Assembly (NCBI RefSeq): GCF_030028105.1
Contig: NC_092375.1
Location: 37,175,130-37,239,129 of the forward strand
DNA from: Mobula birostris
Lineage: Eukaryota
DNA: 64,000 nucleotides
Direction of reading: 5' to 3'
Below, one piece after another: positions 36,340-51,126 of this stretch. How positions within the stretch are numbered: position 1 is the first letter of the stretch; the number at the start of each line of letters is the position of its first letter. The position numbers and the translations under genes are program-made. The notes under the pieces were generated by a model that was given only the letters and a program-made list of their open reading frames with translations, was not told the DNA's origin and ran no database searches.

Positions 36340-38088
36340 GGAAAACCAGCACAAACCCTCTCCGTCTGATTCACCAACTTCCTGGAAGTCCTACCTTTGA
36401 CATCCCCTCTGCATCACAGCCATTGACTGACGTTGATTAGGTCTGGGTTGATCAGAACACGAATGGCCTGTGCACTGAACATCAGGGAGCACATTCAGTC
36501 TACGGTCAGGCTTGGTAGTGAGTCCAAGTTGCACACAGTGTCAGACTAGAATGTTGCCTACTGTGCCAGAATCCAGCAGAGCCTCCTATGCATGTACACT
36601 GGAAAGTGGAGGAGGACAGAGAGAGTAAATTGGGCTATGGTGCTGGAACGAGGGGCTTGGAAGAGCTTACTAGATGGAAGACCCCTCATCTCTATCTAGT
36701 GGCGCTGTTGTCCCGGATGCAGGGAGCATTTGATGAGTGGGTGATTGGCGGGGCTCTGCAGTTAAGCGCAGAAGTTGTTTCTCCACCAATGCTTACGTCC
36801 CAGGTGGGGGTGGGGGGGGGTGGTGGTGTGCACAAGGGTCAAGGAAGTTCTCCCTAACTGCATGGGTGCTGAAGGTGTTGCTGATGAGGGGTTCTAGCAG
36901 TGGTCTGGAGTGTCAGCACGGACAGCCAGAGTGATGAGACCTTCAACGAAGGTGGTCACCTCTCGGGTAGACAGCTCATCTTTCGAACACTCCCCAAGGC
37001 TGTGATGTAACGGGCCAGCAACACTTACGCAGTCAGCCGGAGAGCCCTGAATTCCACAGTGCAATCCAACACAGAGCGTGAGCCTTGATACTGTGAAGTA
37101 TCCGATTCACTGCCTCCCTTCCACTTCTCAGATCATTGAAAATTTGGTGCATCTCAGCGGTGAATTCCACATGTTTATTGCAGATGGAGGTTCTGTTGTC
37201 CCAGTCAGTGACAGCCCAGGCCAGAGCTCGCCCAGTCAGGAGAGACATGACAAAGGCAATCTTGACTCAGTCTATAGAATACAGAGATGGCTGCAGTTCA
37301 GACGGTAAGATGCACTGGGGCAGGAAGTTACGGCATCGGGTTGGGATCCATTGAAGCATTTGCCCTCCAGAATCCGGGATCCTGAGGGAAGAGACTGACT
37401 GGCACAGGGTTGCTGTAACAAGATGGTGAGTTGATTGGGAGTGGTGAACAGATATGCAATGGTTTTCTGCTGCTTCTGAAACCGAGGCTATGGGCCTGCC
37501 CCGGCTGCTCCGCGATTCAGTCTATGGACTCAACTTGGTTTGCAATGCTGTCACTTGCTTTTATTGTTTGCATGATTTGTACTTTCCCCTCTTTCTCTGC
37601 ACATTGTGTGTTGGTCTTTTTTTTATTGGGTTCTTTCAGGTTTCCTGCTTTACAATCTCATGGTTGTACAATTTATACATACTTTGATAATTAATGTGCT
37701 TTGAACGTTGATGTACTTGTGTCAGTGGACAATTTCCTTTAGGCAAGAAAACTTTGCTGGATCAATTGCTGCTTCACCCATCTTGTCAAGAAGTGTAGAG
37801 GAAGCTTGACCCAATGCAAAGTAGTGGAGACAATTTAGCAGTGAGTGATCCTATTAATAATAAACTTCGAAATAACAAACCGGAGGAAGAGGGGAAGCAC
37901 GCAACAAGAGAGAATGGATACTTAACACAAAAAAATCAACAAGTGGCTGGCTGGTTCAATGGGTGAATAAGGACTGTGGATGAGAGTTGGGTTTAAATAG
38001 GCTGCAGGTGATGGGTTGGACATGAGTGGTAGGTGACTCCTCTTAGCTGGGTGGAGACTGGGAGGTGTCTGCCTGTGCAGGCCTGACA
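36340..38088 (-). mobile_element. Gypsy (sushi/chromovirus-like) element, 5' half: 5' LTR, gag, protease
   Basis: LTR 37784-38088; gag SLLTGRALAWAVTDWDNRTSIC; protease LLDSG-like motif near 36585. A LINE 3' fragment is inserted at about 37440-37720. Confidence 0.85.
37784..38088 (-). repeat. LTR-A (5' LTR), TGTCA...TGACA
   Basis: Alignable by eye along its length to LTR-B at 47905-48226 in the opposite orientation. Confidence 0.88.
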
Positions 38089-39729
38089 AAACCGTTCAAC
38101 ACTTAAAAAATGATGTTCAGGAACACCTGTTTAAGAATGTTTTCAGACTCTTTGCTGTGGGTATTTGCAAAAACTGACAACAGAGTTATCAGTGTAATAT
38201 TACTTATTGAAGCCAGTTAACTTTTGTCAAATACCTGTGTCTAATACAACAATACATTAGAAGTCCTACCACATTTCTTTTCTGGCACAAGAAAAACATA
38301 GAAACCGTTGACTATCCTCACACAAAATGATACTGTGAACTATCAAATGGAATAACTGGGAGGATGAGATGACTCATTAATGTTCCAGAATTTTCTCTAG
38401 CAAGATGCTCCCAGATATAAATTCAGTATGTCTGGAGTGTCTTGCTGGAGAAAAATCTAGAATGCAACAAAAAAATGGTAAGGATGTAGTCAAGAAAGAG
38501 ACTGGGAAAAATATTGCCAAATTGTTTTGGGAAAGGACAGAACACACAAGCTAAAGAATGCATTAATAAATCTGGGCTGGGTCAGAAATGAAATTAATAA
38601 GACAAATACAAAACATGAAAAATTGTGCAGAAAGTTCTATATTGTCTAATAATATTATCAAGACAACTATAAAGGTACTCTAGAGGGAGGCATTCAGAAT
38701 AAAGCAGAAGTAGCAGCATATATGGATGTTGTTGGGTGCAATTTAATTGCCATTATGGAAAGTAGTTACACTGTGACCAAGTCTAAAAAAAGGCCAAAAA
38801 TCTTAGGTCCATCTGGCACAATTCCGAGGAGGAGGATGAAGGAAAGAAAAGTGATAACCATAACTATCATCAGATGTCAACCTCTGGCTGGGATAATAAT
38901 GCAAGATTCACTTTGAACTTCACTAGCCAACCCCTGTCACAAGCAATAGCTTTTCCACATTACCCAATGGCTCTATTTCGGGTGATGCAAGATCTCAACC
39001 CTAGACGTCCATGATCCTTGTTCTCCTCCAGTTACTGCTTGACATGAGTTTATTATTTGCCTCGATTCTAGCATCTGCTGTCATTCTGCAGTCTTCACTG
39101 GTTCTGCTATCAATGATACCACGGTTACCGTCATTTCATGATACTCATGCACCATGCAAGCACTTAGAAGTCCATACGTTTCCCATTCTGCCTGATGGTA
39201 GACCGCGCCATTGGATGGTTGATTGGTGGCCTGTACCTGATGCTTCATGGTAGTATATTTCTGCTTAAGCATTCGTGGGGGAAGAAGTGTTGCTCCTGTG
39301 TGGAGGCTTGCCTGCAGGCAACACTTAGAAGTCCAAACAATACATGATAGTTTGCAGAAAGGAAAGCTCATGAGAGTGGTAGAGTACTCTCCCAAAAGAA
39401 GAAGAGTATTTAGGGTCAGAAACTGAATAAAATAATTCTATAAACTCTACAAGGCAGGGAAACGTTATCTCAACCTACGTACAAATTTATGTTAAGAGAA
39501 CCCAGCTAAGACATTCTCTTTTGTTTAAGAGAAAACAAAAGATGAAATGGAACAAGAACACAGGATAAACTTCCTTTCAAGATTTTCGTATTTGACCTGG
39601 TTTCAGCTACCTATAACATAATTAAGGTCAGGGGAAAAAAAATAAATGCTGCAATATTTCTCGTTATCACTAACTCTAGACCTAACGCTGATAACAAGTG
39701 GAACACTGCTGCTGTAAACACTCCTCCAC

Positions 39730-42539: not shown

Positions 42540-43290
42540 AAAAGGTGTACAAAACAGTGCAGGATAATTTCAAAGCATATTTCACAGGAAAGTGAAATGT
42601 GATATATGAAATGGCAAAGTTCAGAAAAGAGGAGCCAAATGTAAATAACATCAGCTCAACATTGTATGCCCCTTCAGACAACTGTGCATTTGGAAATCTG
42701 AGAGGTGAGCTCATTCAGGATAGGACTGCTATATGGCCACTGGACAGCAAACCGTCAGAAAGACCAGTTGCAGGCAGATCTCACACTGGAGAAAGCTATT
42801 ACTATAGTCAGGCAGATTGAGGATGTTCGTCAGCAATAGGCGGAACTCAGGCATGAAAACGATACCGAGGTAAAGCTAGAAGTTGTACAAGAAGAAGGGT
42901 GCAAACAAGGTGCAGTCAGAAAGACTACAGAAAAGGTGACAGTAGAGCTCAGTTCAAATAAAACAGGCAAGCGAAACAAAGGGCAGGTAAAATGTCCACC
43001 TGTAGGAGATGCAGCAGATCTTCATTCCATGTCAAAGAGCTCAATCCAGCAAAAGAATTGAAATGCCACCAATGCATAGAATTGGCCATTATAAAAGCCA
43101 GAAAGACAAGGCTGGTATACCGTGGTTTAGCTGAAAAATCAGACAGTGGCATTCAAAATGGAGACCGGGGCAGATGTCATAGCCATCGTTGAATGTCTGT
43201 TCATAAAACTGGTGAAGAAAACAGACATTACACTAAATCCAACAAAGAAAGTGGCCATGGGGCCAGGGAAAAATAAGTTCGTAAAATAGT
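42540..43290 (+). mobile_element. Gypsy gag-protease remnant (second family)
   Basis: NVIYEMAKF, ALYA..DNCAFGNLRGELI, zinc knuckles (CRRC..HVKE; CHQC..GHY), protease-like KMETGADV. Confidence 0.7.
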
Positions 43291-45408
43291 GTTAATAGTG
43301 TCACTCAGTTAGCCGCTCCCACATGGGAGGAGTTCACATACTCTACAAGGAGGGTTATCAATAAAGCTCACCTGAATATCCTGCATGCTGATGTCTTGGT
43401 GTGGTCTGCACTGTCCCTCAATATTGAATACAATTCCATGTACTCAACAAAATCACCATTAAGAAACACTACCCTCTTCCTTTGATTGATAGAATATTCA
43501 AACACTTTGCAGGACTCAGATCTTTGCCAAACTCGATTTAAGGAGTGCATACAACGTGATTTTCATCTGCTGGGGGTTGAGTGGAAGATGGCGTTCATAA
43601 CACCCACTGGCCACTACGAATACTTGATGATGCTTTTTGGACTTTCTCGCACTTCAGCTGTTTTCCAAGTCTACATTAAAGAGATCTTTTGGGACATGCT
43701 ATACAGATATGTCTTCATCTGCCTCCACGACATTCTCATCTTCTCCCAGGATCCCTAAGAAAACACCTGTCATGTCTGACCAGTCCTTCAGCATCTCATT
43801 AAAAAACAACTGTACTGCAAGTTAGAAAAGTGCCAGTTCACACCCCAGTCATTTCCTTCCAGGCTTACGTCCTGCCACCCCAGGGCATAACCAAGGAACC
43901 ACAGAAAGTGCTCACCATAGTTGAATGGCCCTGACCACACTCCCTCAAACAGCTACAGTGCTTGTTGGCTTTCTCCAACTTCTACTGCCATTTCATCAGG
44001 AACTGCAGCCGAGTTGCTGATCCTCTCACCTTCCTCACCAATTCCCTTCCTCATGGAAAACCTGGCCTGTTGCCATGGGCCACGTTTTCGAAGTCAAGGG
44101 ATGCTTCACCACTACTCCTGATCTTCACCATCCAGACCTCACGTGGTAGAAGTAGATGGATCTGACATGGTGTCGGGGTCATCCTTTCCCAGCGAGGACC
44201 AAATGGGAAGACATCCCTTGTGCCTTCTTCTCGTGCAAGTTGAACTCTACACAGCGCCTTTATAGAGTAGGAGACAGGGAGGTACTTGCCATTAAGTGGG
44301 CCTTGGAAGAATAGAGACATTGGCTGAAAGGAAATACTTAACCTCTTCACTAATCACCAGAACCTATATCTACACAAAAAAATCGCCAACTCAATTCATG
44401 TCAGGCTCACTGGGTCCTCCACTTCAAGCAGTTTGGCCCAGCTGAAATTTAGATTGGCTCTCAGTGTAGTAGTCCATACTTGCCGATCCTGGCCCAGAAC
44501 ACCTGGTAGATCCACCAGACGCTACAGCGTGAGCCTGCTCTGTCCACAACCACATGACTGTGCTGATGACAGTGTGGTCTGATGCATTCCAGTGGGCTCA
44601 CACCTCAAACCCCTCCAGCCTTCAATGAGCCCAGTCCAATTCCTCCAGCCAATGGCCCTCTGGGCTCCTGTGGTCACGAACAGCTGTGGCCCTACATCTC
44701 CATAGATTTCATCACTGGTTTGCCGACTTCTGATGGGGACATGGTGATCATGATGGTGGTGGGCTGGTTCTCTAAGCATCCAGCTTCATTGTCCTCTCCA
44801 ACCCCCCGTCAGCCATTGAGATGGTGGACTTGGTTCTGCAATGTGTAGTTCATCTCCACTAATTCCCTGAGGACATATTGTCTGACCAAGGCTCACAATC
44901 TGTCCCCTGCTTCTGGCAAGCCGTTGGTTCCCACCTCCACACCTCACTGAGTTTGTTCTTTGGTTATCAGCAGCTGCAGACCAATGATCAGTCCGAAAAA
45001 GCCAATCTGCAAATGGTGAGGTTTCTGCAATGCTTTGCTGCCTCAAACCTTTCCACGTGGAAGAAGCATTGATTCTGGGCCGAACTGTCCCACAACCTAC
45101 ACACCTCCACTGCCAGGGTAATCACCGGTTGAAGTTCTTCAAGACTACCAACCCCCACCCTTTCCCCACAGAGGAACACCGGTGAAAGTCCAGTCTTCCA
45201 GGGCCATTGTTTGCCACTGCCAGAATGCTTCAGAGGGAACAGAGGGCAATCCTAGCTGCCAACCACACCTACTGCTTCCAGGCCAACCACCCGTGGAGCC
45301 CAGCCAGACTATTCCAGCCTGGGAACCATGTCTGATTGAGCACCCAAAATAATCCACTCTTCATAAACTGTGAGCACCAGGTGATACTACTCATTAAAAA
45401 AATCAGAA

Positions 45409-47837
45409 ATGGCTGGCTATAAAGAAAAAATTAATGACTTTGGTTGCACAAAGGGTAAAAAGCTTATGTATACTGAGCTATTCAAACAGTATTTTGAAAT
45501 AACCAACAAGAAACGAGTGCTAATTTTGCTAAGTGTATTAGGTTTAAAGGTGTTCAGTTGCTTCGAAGTTTGACTGCCCCAACCAAACCGTTAGAAATGA
45601 GCTTGTAAAAAGTGATGCTGGAACACCTAGAACAAAAGCCATTGTTAATTGTAGAACACTTTACGTTTCATAAGCAGAATCAAAGAGTAGGGGCCTTCAT
45701 TTTAGCGTACGTGGCTGAATTGAAGAGATTGGTGAGCATTTTCAGTTTCTTAATAGTCTTAATGATACACTGAGAGATCATTTAGTTTGTGGAATCTTAA
45801 AAGAAAGCATTCAAAAACAACTCATAACTGAAGAACAGGTTACACTCAAATGAGTAATGGAAACCGCAGACGGAGGTGCAATTGAGTTGCAGTCAGGAAT
45901 GAAAGTGAGTGTGGCTAAAAATGCAGCGTCCAAACTGAAACCAGCCTGACTGAACAAATTGTGTTACCATTGCAAAAGGGGTCACGTTCATTAAACAAAT
46001 GCAGATTTAAAAGCGAAACTTACACAAAATGAAACAAAGTAGGACATGTACAAAGAATAAAATGAATGGTCTGCTCAGGGAAGAGAAAAAGATAAAACGT
46101 CAAGTTGCAGTTTCAAAAAGAGCACGATCTGTATACTGTTGATGAAAAATCTGATAATGATGAGAGTGACATAGGATTGCGTAGCCTTGAGATTTGCAGT
46201 TTGAAAACTAACAGACCAGCAATATGGCCTGCACCGGAAGTGCATGGAAAATTAATTAAAATGGAATTGGACACTGGCTCAGCTGTTTCAGACATTCCAC
46301 AATATGAGTTTCAAAAAGCATTTCAAAGATACTAAACTGAAGCCTGCAGTTATTCAACTGAGAACTTGTACTGGAGAAAAGATAACTTCTGTGGGAATGA
46401 CATTCGTGACTGTGAAATACAACAACCAACAAGCCACATTGTGCTTGTATGTGGTGAAAACAGAAGGACCAGCACTCTGGGGATCTGATTGGCTGAGACA
46501 ACTACAACTTGATTGGAGATCCATTAACCATTTGCGTGCCAAATCCCCTGCAATGAAGTCAACTGAAAGTGAACAAAGAAAGGAGCTGGATGATGCCACA
46601 ACTGTCTCCATGCCGAACATCATGAACCACTGCCCAGCAGAGAACAAACATGTGTTGGTGTCAACCTCTGTGCCTCTGGTTGGGAAGCATATTGGATCAA
46701 GGAAGGACCATGCTGCTTAGAGGAATCATGCAAGTGAAGAAAGTCGTGGTCTGCCTCCAACAGTTTTTGTTGGCAACATATCTGAGAAAGCTTCTGATAT
46801 GTTAATCAGGCAGTTATTTGTGAAATGTGGCTTGGTCTTAAGCTGGAAGAGAGTTCAAGGAGCTTCAGGAAAGCTGCAAGCATTCAGCTTCTGTGAGTAT
46901 AAACAACCAGAATCTACTCTGCGTGCTCTAAGGTTAATGCATGAACTTCAAGTGGGAGACAAAAAGCTGCTTGTAAAAGTAAATGCAAAGACCAAAGCCC
47001 AGCTGGATGAATGGAAGGCCAAAAAAAAGACAGGAGTTAATGGAAATACAAAACAAGATGATTCGTCAGATGATGTTGTGGATGAGGAAAGCAAGAAGAG
47101 AGATCAGATCGTAAAGCGAGCAATAGAAAGAATAATAAGAGAATGTTTCAGTGAACTAAATACTCCTTCCTAAGATCAAGATGCACAAACTAGAAGAAGA
47201 AAAAGGAGGAGGAGATGGAGAGAAAGAATGTGAACAAGAAAGAGAAAGATGTGAACGAGAGAAGGAATATGAGAAAGAAAAGGAAAGGGATCGAAGTAGA
47301 TCCAGAGAGAGAAAAGGAGAAAAAAATGTGTCAAGGGCCGTCAAAAACACTTCCTGCAGTCTCAGAGTCAAATCTTACAATCACGACAAAGGAGGCCCCA
47401 GAACCAGAGATTGTTTTCACAGCTACAAGCCTTATCTGGTAACCCTTGTCAGGAAAGACGTTATCCCACAAGAGTACAAAATCCTCCACAGAGATTAAAC
47501 CTTTAAGCCCGAATGGGACAATTTAAAATTTACTATGCTGCAGATGTCTGTGTATAATATGTGTATTATGTAATAAGCTGTGTATTTAATTATGATGCTT
47601 TCAGTACTGAGTTGGTGTTTATAGCTAAACAGGGAGGAGTGTTGTGTATTTAATATTTCAATAATGTTTGAGTAATCTTGTATATATATTGTTTGGTTAG
47701 TTAACTGCACATGTAATCATGCTACCATGTGATACGAGCGCACCTCGCTTGAAGTAAACTCAAACTACACTCATATTTTCGGACTCCCATGAGTTTCTTT
47801 GAATTAGTTTAATGTTTTGAAGTTACAAAACGTAACA
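45409..47837 (+). mobile_element. Nested Gypsy element (gag, protease, [RBM25 insert], integrase tail, polypurine tract, 3' LTR 47640-47837); 5' LTR missing
   Basis: gag from ATG 45409 (MAGY..., LRDHLVCGIL, zinc knuckles), protease IKMELDTGSAVS...GSDWLRQLQLDW, pol end EAPEPEIV...RRYPTR..NPPQRLNL*, tract aaacagggaggag, LTR TG...CA of 198 bp. Confidence 0.88.
46601..47315 (+). pseudogene. RBM25: Processed (intronless) RBM25 fragment: N-terminus, RRM and part of the RE/RD repeat
   Basis: VGKHIGSRKDH, TVFVGNISEKASDMLIRQL..KCGLVLSWKRVQGASGKLQAF.FCEYK.PESTLRALRL.H.LQVGDKKLLVKV.AKTKAQLDEWKAKKK match RBM25 as I recall it. In-frame stops near 46717 and 47171; no introns. Confidence 0.93.
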
Positions 47838-48592: not shown

Positions 48593-51126
48593 TCTTTCTT
48601 TTTCAATCTTTTTATTGGTATCATAATGATAAAGATTAACATAACATAGTAATCATACAAAGTTATTGGGATTACATTGATGTAATTATCATATATAAAT
48701 ATAAACCCAATTAATACATGGATATTAAACCTCCCAATCTTACAGGATACAAATATTATATATAGACAAATTAACATGAAAAAGGAAAAAAGAAAAAACA
48801 CATATACCCCCCAAAAAACTAATGTAACAAGATAGACCAACTAAACTACAGAAAAAAAAAGACATGGGCAGTTGTGGAACATTAAAAAAAAGAATCATTA
48901 GTGTCGTTGACTCTGCTCCCCTCAACATATACTAAAAAGAAATAGCGTAGGTTTGGAAAAGGTCAAATTACATCATATGAAAGTATTGAATAAGTGGCCT
49001 CCAAGTCTTTTCAAATTTAATAGAGGGATCATAAATAACACTTCTATTTTTTTTCTAAATTTAAACACATAATAGTTTGAGAGAACCAATGAAATGTAGT
49101 AGGGGGATTGATCTCTTTCCAATTTAGAAAAATGGATCTTCCGGCCATCAGTGTAAGAAATACAATCATCCGACAGGCTGAAGATGTTAAATGATTTGGT
49201 TCTATCATTGGTAAACCAAAAATTGCAGTAATAGGGTACGGTTGTAAATCAATACTCAAAACAGTTGAAATAGTATCAAAGATATCTTTCCAGTATTTTT
49301 TTAAAAGAGGACATGACCAAAACATACGAGTTAAAAAAGATATCTCGGAATGACATCTATCACATATAGGATTTATATGAGAGTAATAACGAGCTAATTT
49401 ATCCTTAGACATATGAACCGTATGCACTACTTTAAACTGTATTAACACATGTTTAGCACATATAGAGGATGAATTAACTAATTGAAGAATGTTTTCCCAT
49501 TTTTCAATAGGTAAAGTAAACGTAAGTTCCCTTTCCCAATCGATCTTAACTTTAATAGATATGTCTGGATGTATTTTCATAATTATATTATAAATATTTG
49601 TTATTACTCCTTTCTGAAAAGGATTTAAACCTAAATTTTTTCCAAAATATCCGATGAATATAAATTTGAGAAGGTAGGAAGAACAATATTTTTAAAATTT
49701 CTAATCTGTAAATATCTAAAGAAATGGGATCTAGGCAAATTGTATTTGTTAGATAATTGTTCAAAAGACATGAAACAATTATCCAAAAATAGATCACAAA
49801 ACCTTAATATGCCTTTAGTTTTCCAAGCCAAATAGGCTTGATCCATGATAGAGGGTTGAAAAAACAAATTAAATATAATAGGACTTGCTAGAATAAATTG
49901 ATTCAACCCAAAAAATTTTTGAAATTGAATCCATATTCGTAAAGTGTATTTTACTATTGGGTTAACCATTTGTTTATGCAATTTAGAAAGAGAAAAGGGA
50001 AGCGAGGTCCCTAAAATAGAACCCAGTGAAAACCCTTGTAAAGATTTACATTCAAGTTTTATCCAATGTGGACTTGAAGTAATGTCCAAGTCCCATGACC
50101 AAAATTTTAAATATCAAATATTAATTTCCTAATAATAAAATCTAAAATTCAGCAATGCCAGACACCACCCTCCCACCGCCTTTTTAAATTTCTGTAAGTA
50201 TCTTTTATCTATCCTAGGACTTTTATTCTGCCATATGTATGAAGAGAATTGAAGATTTCTTCTAAAATATTAGCAGCTAGGTTAGAGAAGGTATTACCTC
50301 AAATTATCTTTGTGGACCAAACTGGATTTATTAAAAACCGTTATTCATCTTTTAATATTAGGAGATTAATTAATATTATTTATACTTCATCACTTACTAC
50401 TCCAGAATGTGTTATTTCACTAGATGCTGAGAAGGCTTTTGACAGAGTTGAATGGCTGTATTTATTTACTGTGGTTGAGAAGTTTAATTTTAGCCTAATA
50501 TTTATATCTTGGATAAAATTGATAAAATTGATATATTATACCCATGTAGCTTCAGTTTTTATCAATAATCAAAGCTCTCCCATTTTTCATTTATTTCAGG
50601 GTCTTAGTCCATTATTATTTGATATTGCCCTTGAACCTTTAGCAATTGCTATTCAAGATTCACCTGGCATTCTTGGTATTACCCGTGTGAATGAAATACA
50701 TAAGGTATCATTATATGCAGACGAGTTACTATTATATATCTCTAACCCTGAGAAATCTATTCCTGCTGTTTTATCCTTGTTGGCTCAGTTTAGTAATTTT
50801 TCTGATTATAAATTAAACCTTAATAAGAGTGAACTATTTTCCCTAAATACGCAGGTTCCAATTTATGGATGCTTACCATGTAAATTGGTTCCGATTTCTT
50901 TACATACTTAGGGGTTAAAATTACAAAAAAGCATAAGGATTTATTTAAGGCTAATTTTTTACCTCTAATTGATCAGATTAAACTTTTGTTTACTAAATGG
51001 TCACCAATGTCTCTATCATTGATAGGTCGGATTAATGCTATCAAGATGATTATTTTACTTAAATTTTTATATTTATTTCAAGCGGTGCCAGTTTTTATTC
51101 CGAAATCCTTTTTAGACTAGATTGAT
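48593..51126 (-). mobile_element. 5'-truncated L1 with inverted 5' segment (twin priming)
   Basis: Minus part (about 50190 to 48593) runs from KYLQK to the poly(A) tail; plus part (about 50200-51115) is the RT region ending at FIPKSF. TCCTCCT repeat at 48586-48592 and 51127-51133. Confidence 0.85.

Follow-up and report, generated by a model that had tools for sequence, protein, structure and literature searches.

A dead Gypsy copy with a fragment of spliced RBM25 mRNA in place of its pol enzymes, and the family to which it belongs

The analysed window (the whole stretch of DNA studied, 64,000 nucleotides long, on G000:C7 of a 4.0-Gb genome) contains a chimeric Gypsy copy at 45360-47837 on the plus strand. 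We regard this element as a dead copy of a non-autonomous Gypsy family in which a piece of spliced RBM25 replaces the reverse transcriptase (RT), RNase H and the integrase core. The piece was likely captured once, by a double template switch, and the hybrid was likely mobilised by a sister family to an estimated 1,300-2,000 sites. We give this reading as a whole a probability of about 0.88.

Results

The chimeric copy in the window

The copy consists of gag, protease, an RRM-bearing insert, an integrase tail, a polypurine tract and a 3' LTR (Table 1). An earlier reading, made from the sequence only, set its start at 45409; other family copies align from farther upstream, and the start is moved to about 45360. 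The match of gag and protease to the polyprotein P0207 starts at 45466 and runs from residue 1 to about residue 392. Full copies elsewhere have an LTR of about 250 bp and a primer site upstream of the leader. The window copy has no 5' LTR, primer-binding site or target duplication; a deletion likely removed the 5' LTR, the primer site and the left target site. The RRM-bearing part contains stops at 46718-46720 and 47171-47173, and the exon H and I part was shaped by deletions of 119, 35, 180 and 8 nt. The window copy is old, decayed and dead.

Table 1. Coordinates of the parts of the chimeric copy (window positions)
Feature	Position	Strand	Basis
5' leader remnant of the element	45360-45408	+	other family copies align from 45360
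Decayed gag and aspartic protease, K02A2.6-type Gypsy, with frameshifts and stops	45409-46593	+	tblastn, P0207 residues 1 to ~392, E 1e-84
5' switch point, 7-nt microhomology TGCCACA	46594-46600	+	common to element and RBM25 exon end, same frame
RBM25 exon A, final 3 nt, followed by 48-nt cassette exon B	46601-46651	+	host exons with AG/GT ends
Entire RRM: RBM25 exons C to E and the initial 142 nt of F, spliced	46652-47186	+	
Arg/Glu-rich region of RBM25, remnants of exons H and I	47187-47325	+	ends in 3' microhomology (G)GAGAAGAAA
C-terminal integrase tail of Gypsy with its 3' untranslated stretch	47316-47626	+	RT-bearing copies align from 47316-47340
Polypurine tract	47627-47639	+	read directly; same motif precedes 3' LTRs of other copies
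3' LTR, TG...CA, 198 bp, ~50 bp shorter than in intact pairs	47640-47837	+	

The neighbourhood is rich in other decayed elements. The copy lies within the 3' part of another Gypsy-like element, to which it is unrelated and whose flanks take up about 43390-45359 and the sequence from 47838. This second element gives a weak RT match (E 0.002); its RT, RNase H and integrase motifs were otherwise recognised by eye. The segment 47880-48227 resembles an LTR of this surrounding element, and an inverted 86% copy lies near 38000-38092. Inspection by eye also showed, at about 43000-43290, a gag/protease-like piece from a further LTR element. A decayed LINE occupies 49044-50113 on the minus strand, with a zf-RVT-like match at 49044-49691 (E 0.004).

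The captured RBM25 piece and its parent gene

The insert is 74% identical to a named fish RBM25 (E 2e-61), its frame at 46721-47173 matches Pfam RRM_1, and its best match is sevengill shark RBM25 (82%). The host is therefore probably a cartilaginous fish. A PDB sequence search with the insert gave generic RRM matches only. The parent gene was found at one locus, near 154.48 Mb on G000:C1, with the C-terminal part of gar RBM25 as the query. A PWI-family search had led to two other genes, neither of them RBM25, which we take from their translations to be SRRM1 and DDX23; the protein query then located RBM25.

Nine parent exons with AG/GT ends were mapped and labelled A to I. The insert contains, in order, the last 10 nt of A, then B, C, D, E, most of F, pieces of H and the start of I; the joined exons span about 28 kb of the parent gene. 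Introns are absent at six splice junctions (A|B, B|C, C|D, D|E, E|F and H|I), and the insert is therefore a copy of spliced mRNA. The long blocks show 384/427 and 141/163 identities to the spliced host exons. The captured segment comes from within the coding sequence and stops well short of the 3' end of the mRNA. Thus the early description of about 715 bp of intronless RBM25 is right as to the introns but not as to continuity: internal deletions have removed about 342 nt relative to the mRNA.

Exon B is a 48-nt in-frame cassette exon (G000:C1:154450900-154450947, L080:900-947) that corresponds to 46604-46651 of the window. Sevengill shark RBM25 (P0121) matches the last 14 of its encoded residues exactly, and the exon is missing in the five other RBM25 proteins viewed (P0038, P0001, P0056, P0122 and P0123). 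The captured mRNA isoform included this exon.

Junctions and the replaced part of pol

Among 29 loci picked by their protease alone, 16 run on into RBM25 and 13 into RT-like sequence. The alignment of the RT-bearing sister copies ends at 46600-46605 in all 13 cases and resumes at about 47316-47321, with the polypurine tract and the 3' LTR following. The sister copies thus place the end of the Gypsy protease sequence and its resumption in the integrase tail where the sequence-only reading had put them, about 46600 and near 47320.

Chimeric and RT-bearing copies part directly after TGCCACA, a heptamer also found at the end of host exon A. This heptamer stands in the same reading frame in the element and in RBM25, and so the 5' join is in frame. 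The 3' join does not keep the pol frame; here, host and element have 7-10 nt of (G)GAGAAGAAA in common in six of seven well-anchored RT-bearing copies. With random breakpoints the probability of at least 7 shared nucleotides would be 0.0008 at the 5' and 0.0003 at the 3' junction, under a null model that ignores the A/G-rich 3' context.

Between the junctions, five decayed RT-bearing copies hold 2195-2456 nt of pol, i.e., about 2.2-2.5 kb was replaced; two further copies hold secondary insertions and one is deleted. The replaced segment comprises RT, RNase H and the integrase core (Pfam RVT_1, RT_RNaseH and rve in sister copies), the three parts first noted as absent. Poly(A) and a target duplication are absent around the insert in the window copy, in agreement with the first observation, and a retrocopy flanked by such marks is excluded there, as is an assembly artefact. 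No poly(A) and no extra RBM25 beyond the common junctions was found in the copies examined. Long copies with exon G have the same junction pair as the shorter ones.

Double template switching on a spliced mRNA, proposed at the outset, gains support from the intron loss, the microhomology at both ends and the single junction pair at all copy lengths. RBM25 mRNA would have been packaged together with Gypsy RNA. RT would then have jumped onto the spliced mRNA at TGCCACA and back at (G)GAGAAGAAA, both switches being guided by microhomology, and the enzyme-less hybrid would have been copied in trans by the RT-bearing sister family. The founder may have encoded an open Gag-protease-RRM polyprotein. 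DNA-level microhomology repair with RBM25 cDNA would leave similar junctions.

Copy number, dispersal and the sister family

Both junctions are spanned in one alignment at 26 of 39 non-self places (78-83% identity) and in two pieces at 10 more. An exact 19-mer across the captured A|B splice junction has 252 matches in the genome, about two thirds of the 379 exact matches of the 19-mer at the sister junction; the two patterns differ slightly in degeneracy, and each reversed control gave 0. The estimate of 1,300-2,000 copies is extrapolated, not counted, from exact-match rates of 0.12-0.20 (0.12 in 23 test windows, and 9/46).

We sampled 60 of the 252 motif matches, namely the first listed on C1, C3 and C4, skipping three already in the set. 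Protease lies upstream in 51/60 and the integrase tail downstream in 42/60. Two sampled loci on G000:C3, L148 (126.80 Mb) and L149 (126.94 Mb), lie 132 kb from each other in opposite orientation yet give identical alignments, and represent a recent segmental duplication or an assembly duplicate; L149 was dropped, which left 59 motif-picked copies. Both ends could be located in only 11 of these 59, and 8 of the 11 have a 5-bp target duplication with at least 4/5 positions matching (1/110 in the shuffled-pair control). Seven LTR pairs of family copies differ by K2P distances of 0.18-0.26. Six copies of the shortest type (L120, L124, L130, L136, L138 and L155) have in common a changed sequence where the integrase tail begins. 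This sub-lineage implies that several source copies were active.

The RT-bearing copies share the LTR, gag, protease and tail with the chimera, and all those examined are decayed. The chimeric and RT-bearing proteases are separated by one diagnostic column in 338. The order PR-RT-RNase H-IN in one frame marks the sister copies as Gypsy of the K02A2.6 type, by likeness to P0207. The chimera is a non-autonomous LTR retrotransposon family with an RT-bearing partner. The suggestion of such a family is upheld by the LTR pairs with target duplications and by the hundreds of exact junction matches. The accompanying idea that it spreads an RRM domain holds for the DNA only, every copy examined being decayed.

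In four other organisms, the insert is densely covered by DNA contigs in which the joint of the short subfamily is also seen; the summed depth of these contigs does not measure copy number. A contig from organism B crosses the left edge of the window copy with 6 differences in 568 nt, and this insertion is therefore common to both organisms. The 5' junction is bridged by contigs in X15 (record 2) and X16 (record 9), from runs that we guessed to be RNA and that may be DNA or intronic. A literature search, with the repeat libraries (Repbase, Dfam) outside its scope, found no report of an RBM25-Gypsy family.

Deletions, burst and decay

Copies that hold exon G exist (369 first-look candidates, of which 40 were scored). 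They share both junctions with the others, so the original capture measured about 1,075 nt. It was likely captured once, as a single piece; nested deletions and a star-like burst came afterwards. The 59 motif-picked copies comprise 24 of the shortest type, 8 with exon G, 5 of the window type, 5 others and 17 without a located tail. The deletion from F to H is common to the shortest and window types, and the nested deletions fall in the purine-rich half of the insert. Splicing was ruled out as the cause of the F-to-H deletion, its donor side having no GT. One copy, L112 (G000:C1, 144.52 Mb), keeps exon G yet has in exon F the junction letters typical of the deleted subfamilies; possibly it is a recombinant between subfamilies.

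The tree of 95 copies is a star, with mean terminal and internal branches of 0.106 and 0.004 (about 11% divergence per copy) and only one clade at 0.95 support. No substitution in the insert is diagnostic of a subfamily at p<0.001 among 80 classified copies. Near-fixed differences between the family and the modern gene number 18, 17 synonymous and one non-synonymous, and at the latter the shark outgroup has the family residue. They are best read as changes on the host side. The synonymous change in the host since capture (17/126 sites) is near the divergence of the copies themselves, which suggests that the burst came soon after capture. We attempted to date the burst with a mutation rate of 7e-10 per generation, as reported in PMC10587355; the result, about 1.6e8 generations, is implausibly many and was rejected.

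The rates of non-synonymous to synonymous change for rare and private variants among the 59 copies are 1.21 and 1.01, which indicates neutral decay after insertion. With these rates, and with stops in the window copy, no purifying selection on an intact frame was seen. A search for a long fused protein found none among 1180 candidates, which is weak evidence.

Was the captured piece useful to the element?

The RRM is most likely a passenger. It is possible, though we judge it rather unlikely, that selection acted on the captured piece, i.e., that the in-frame Gag-protease-RRM fusion or an unbroken frame raised copying through RNA packaging, stability or escape from nonsense-mediated decay. Besides the in-frame 5' junction, this idea draws on the deletions. 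The anchor distance is 516 nt when undeleted, with modes of 174 in the window type and 63 in the shortest subfamily, and it is a multiple of three in 17/25 and 17/24 copies of the two main deletion subfamilies. Three of the four component deletions (119, 35 and 8 nt) shift the frame and the net frame is kept, while private indels are multiples of three in only 68/295 cases. Such keeping of the frame hints at more than a passenger role. However, chance alone would yield three in-frame outcomes about once in 27 times and the pattern was noticed post hoc, triplet-periodic repeats favour deletions in multiples of three, and exon-G copies are in frame in only 2/9 cases.

The remaining evidence is similarly divided. 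The RRM exons are retained in 80-90% of copies and the Arg/Glu half in less than 25%, but the coverage of the RRM is inflated by the choice of copies through a nearby 5' motif. The element side has no fixed amino-acid change by the 17:1 count; yet the star tree and the lack of diagnostic substitutions point to a founder that had no time to mutate, and with such a founder host-side change alone explains the pattern. No stop is common in gag-protease among 38 copies (the top site is 8/32), but the lengths from the gag start to the junction scatter evenly by frame (14/12/12), and the 3' junction leaves the pol frame. Any advantage of the open frame may have lain with the element's own Gag and not with a function of the RRM. 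A role for the RRM itself is unlikely at best. It is likewise doubtful that a translated Gag-protease-RRM fusion, kept open via compensating deletions, explains how the hybrid rivals its autonomous parent in copy number, which would make this a co-opted host RNA-binding domain.

By analogy with other captures, the insert might instead protect the element from silencing: small RNAs against the element would also strike the essential RBM25 mRNA, and the host would tolerate the element. A similar host-tolerance proposal has reportedly been made for gene capture in maize. Without enzymes, the hybrid attained 252 exact matches to the sister's 379, about two thirds, and the nxf2, aub and piwi captures by Drosophila telomeric elements, as described in PMC13534243, would be a precedent. 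Nevertheless we consider this quite improbable. Host synonymous change (17/126) is close to the copy divergence of 0.106 and gives no sign of accelerated escape, and shorter non-autonomous elements often spread well without cargo, according to PMC5131818. Accelerated host escape, considered separately, was rejected: 17 synonymous changes are not distinguishable from the 13 or so expected.

As to the origin of the insert, a LINE could have placed an RBM25 retrocopy in a Gypsy copy, with flanking deletions then removing pol, the poly(A) and the target duplication before amplification. LINEs are abundant here and would also yield an intronless insert. The insert, however, is internal to the coding sequence and shows none of the marks of an L1/LINE processed pseudogene (a 3' poly(A), a target duplication, the 3' end of the mRNA). 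Microhomology at both junctions and the absence of poly(A) or of further RBM25 in the copies examined also speak against this origin, which would require two extra precise deletions; we think it very improbable. Finally, an assembly chimera or chance similarity, to which only the low-complexity 3' half could lend any colour, is refuted by the 252 exact junction matches against 0 in the control and by the same structure in contigs of other organisms, one of them across the left edge of the window copy.

Discussion

Under the preferred reading, a template-switch capture copied in trans, one event in which an LTR element takes up an mRNA can give rise to roughly a thousand copies of a conserved host domain within a vertebrate genome, here about 1 Mb of RBM25-derived DNA. 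The copies preserve the host mRNA as it was at the time of capture, including the isoform with the 48-nt cassette exon, and polarise 18 later changes of the host gene. They provide an extensive natural set of deletions made by RT slippage, and the family is a testable case of whether cargo helps a non-autonomous element. In these genomes the copies will also confound the mapping of reads and the annotation of RBM25.

The mechanism is known (Tan 2016, PMC5131818); the scale and the in-frame architecture are unusual. The LTR-mediated animal retrocopies described there carry partial spliced mRNA in sense orientation in place of internal ORFs, with a median microsimilarity of 6 bp at the switch points and without poly(A) or a target duplication at the insert. 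The RBM25 family resembles them in all these respects and in its non-autonomous recopying. It differs in its estimated 1,300-2,000 copies, nested deletion subfamilies and in-frame fusion to gag-protease; the multi-site cases in that survey, in which cartilaginous fish were not included, are young and not numerous, with 18 sites for nine retrocopies. In maize Bs1 and the human HERV-K/FAM8A1 transductions a host mRNA fragment also replaces part of the coding region of an LTR element, but these are plant or retroviral elements, and amplification on this scale is not described for them in the account of PMC5131818.

Other comparisons concern the outcome. A bat Helitron with NUBPL, present in about 1000 copies according to PMC12001565, is likewise a vertebrate mobile element that multiplied a piece of a host gene about a thousandfold; it is a rolling-circle DNA transposon, whose spread involves no RT template switching on spliced mRNA. 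The captures by Drosophila telomeric elements (TART/nxf2, aub and piwi) are also host gene fragments fixed in a successful retrotransposon family, but these elements are non-LTR and their piRNA-pathway cargo comes with small-RNA evidence (as presented in PMC13534243). The nearest known counterpart on the element side is the K02A2.6-type polyprotein P0207 of Triplophysa rosa, which, like the sister copies, has Gag, PR, RT, RNase H and IN in a single frame. It is 39-64% identical to the sister copies and to the gag-protease of the window (P0207 was named K02A2.6 at 49% identity), and in the chimera everything from about residue 393 of P0207 onward is replaced by RBM25.
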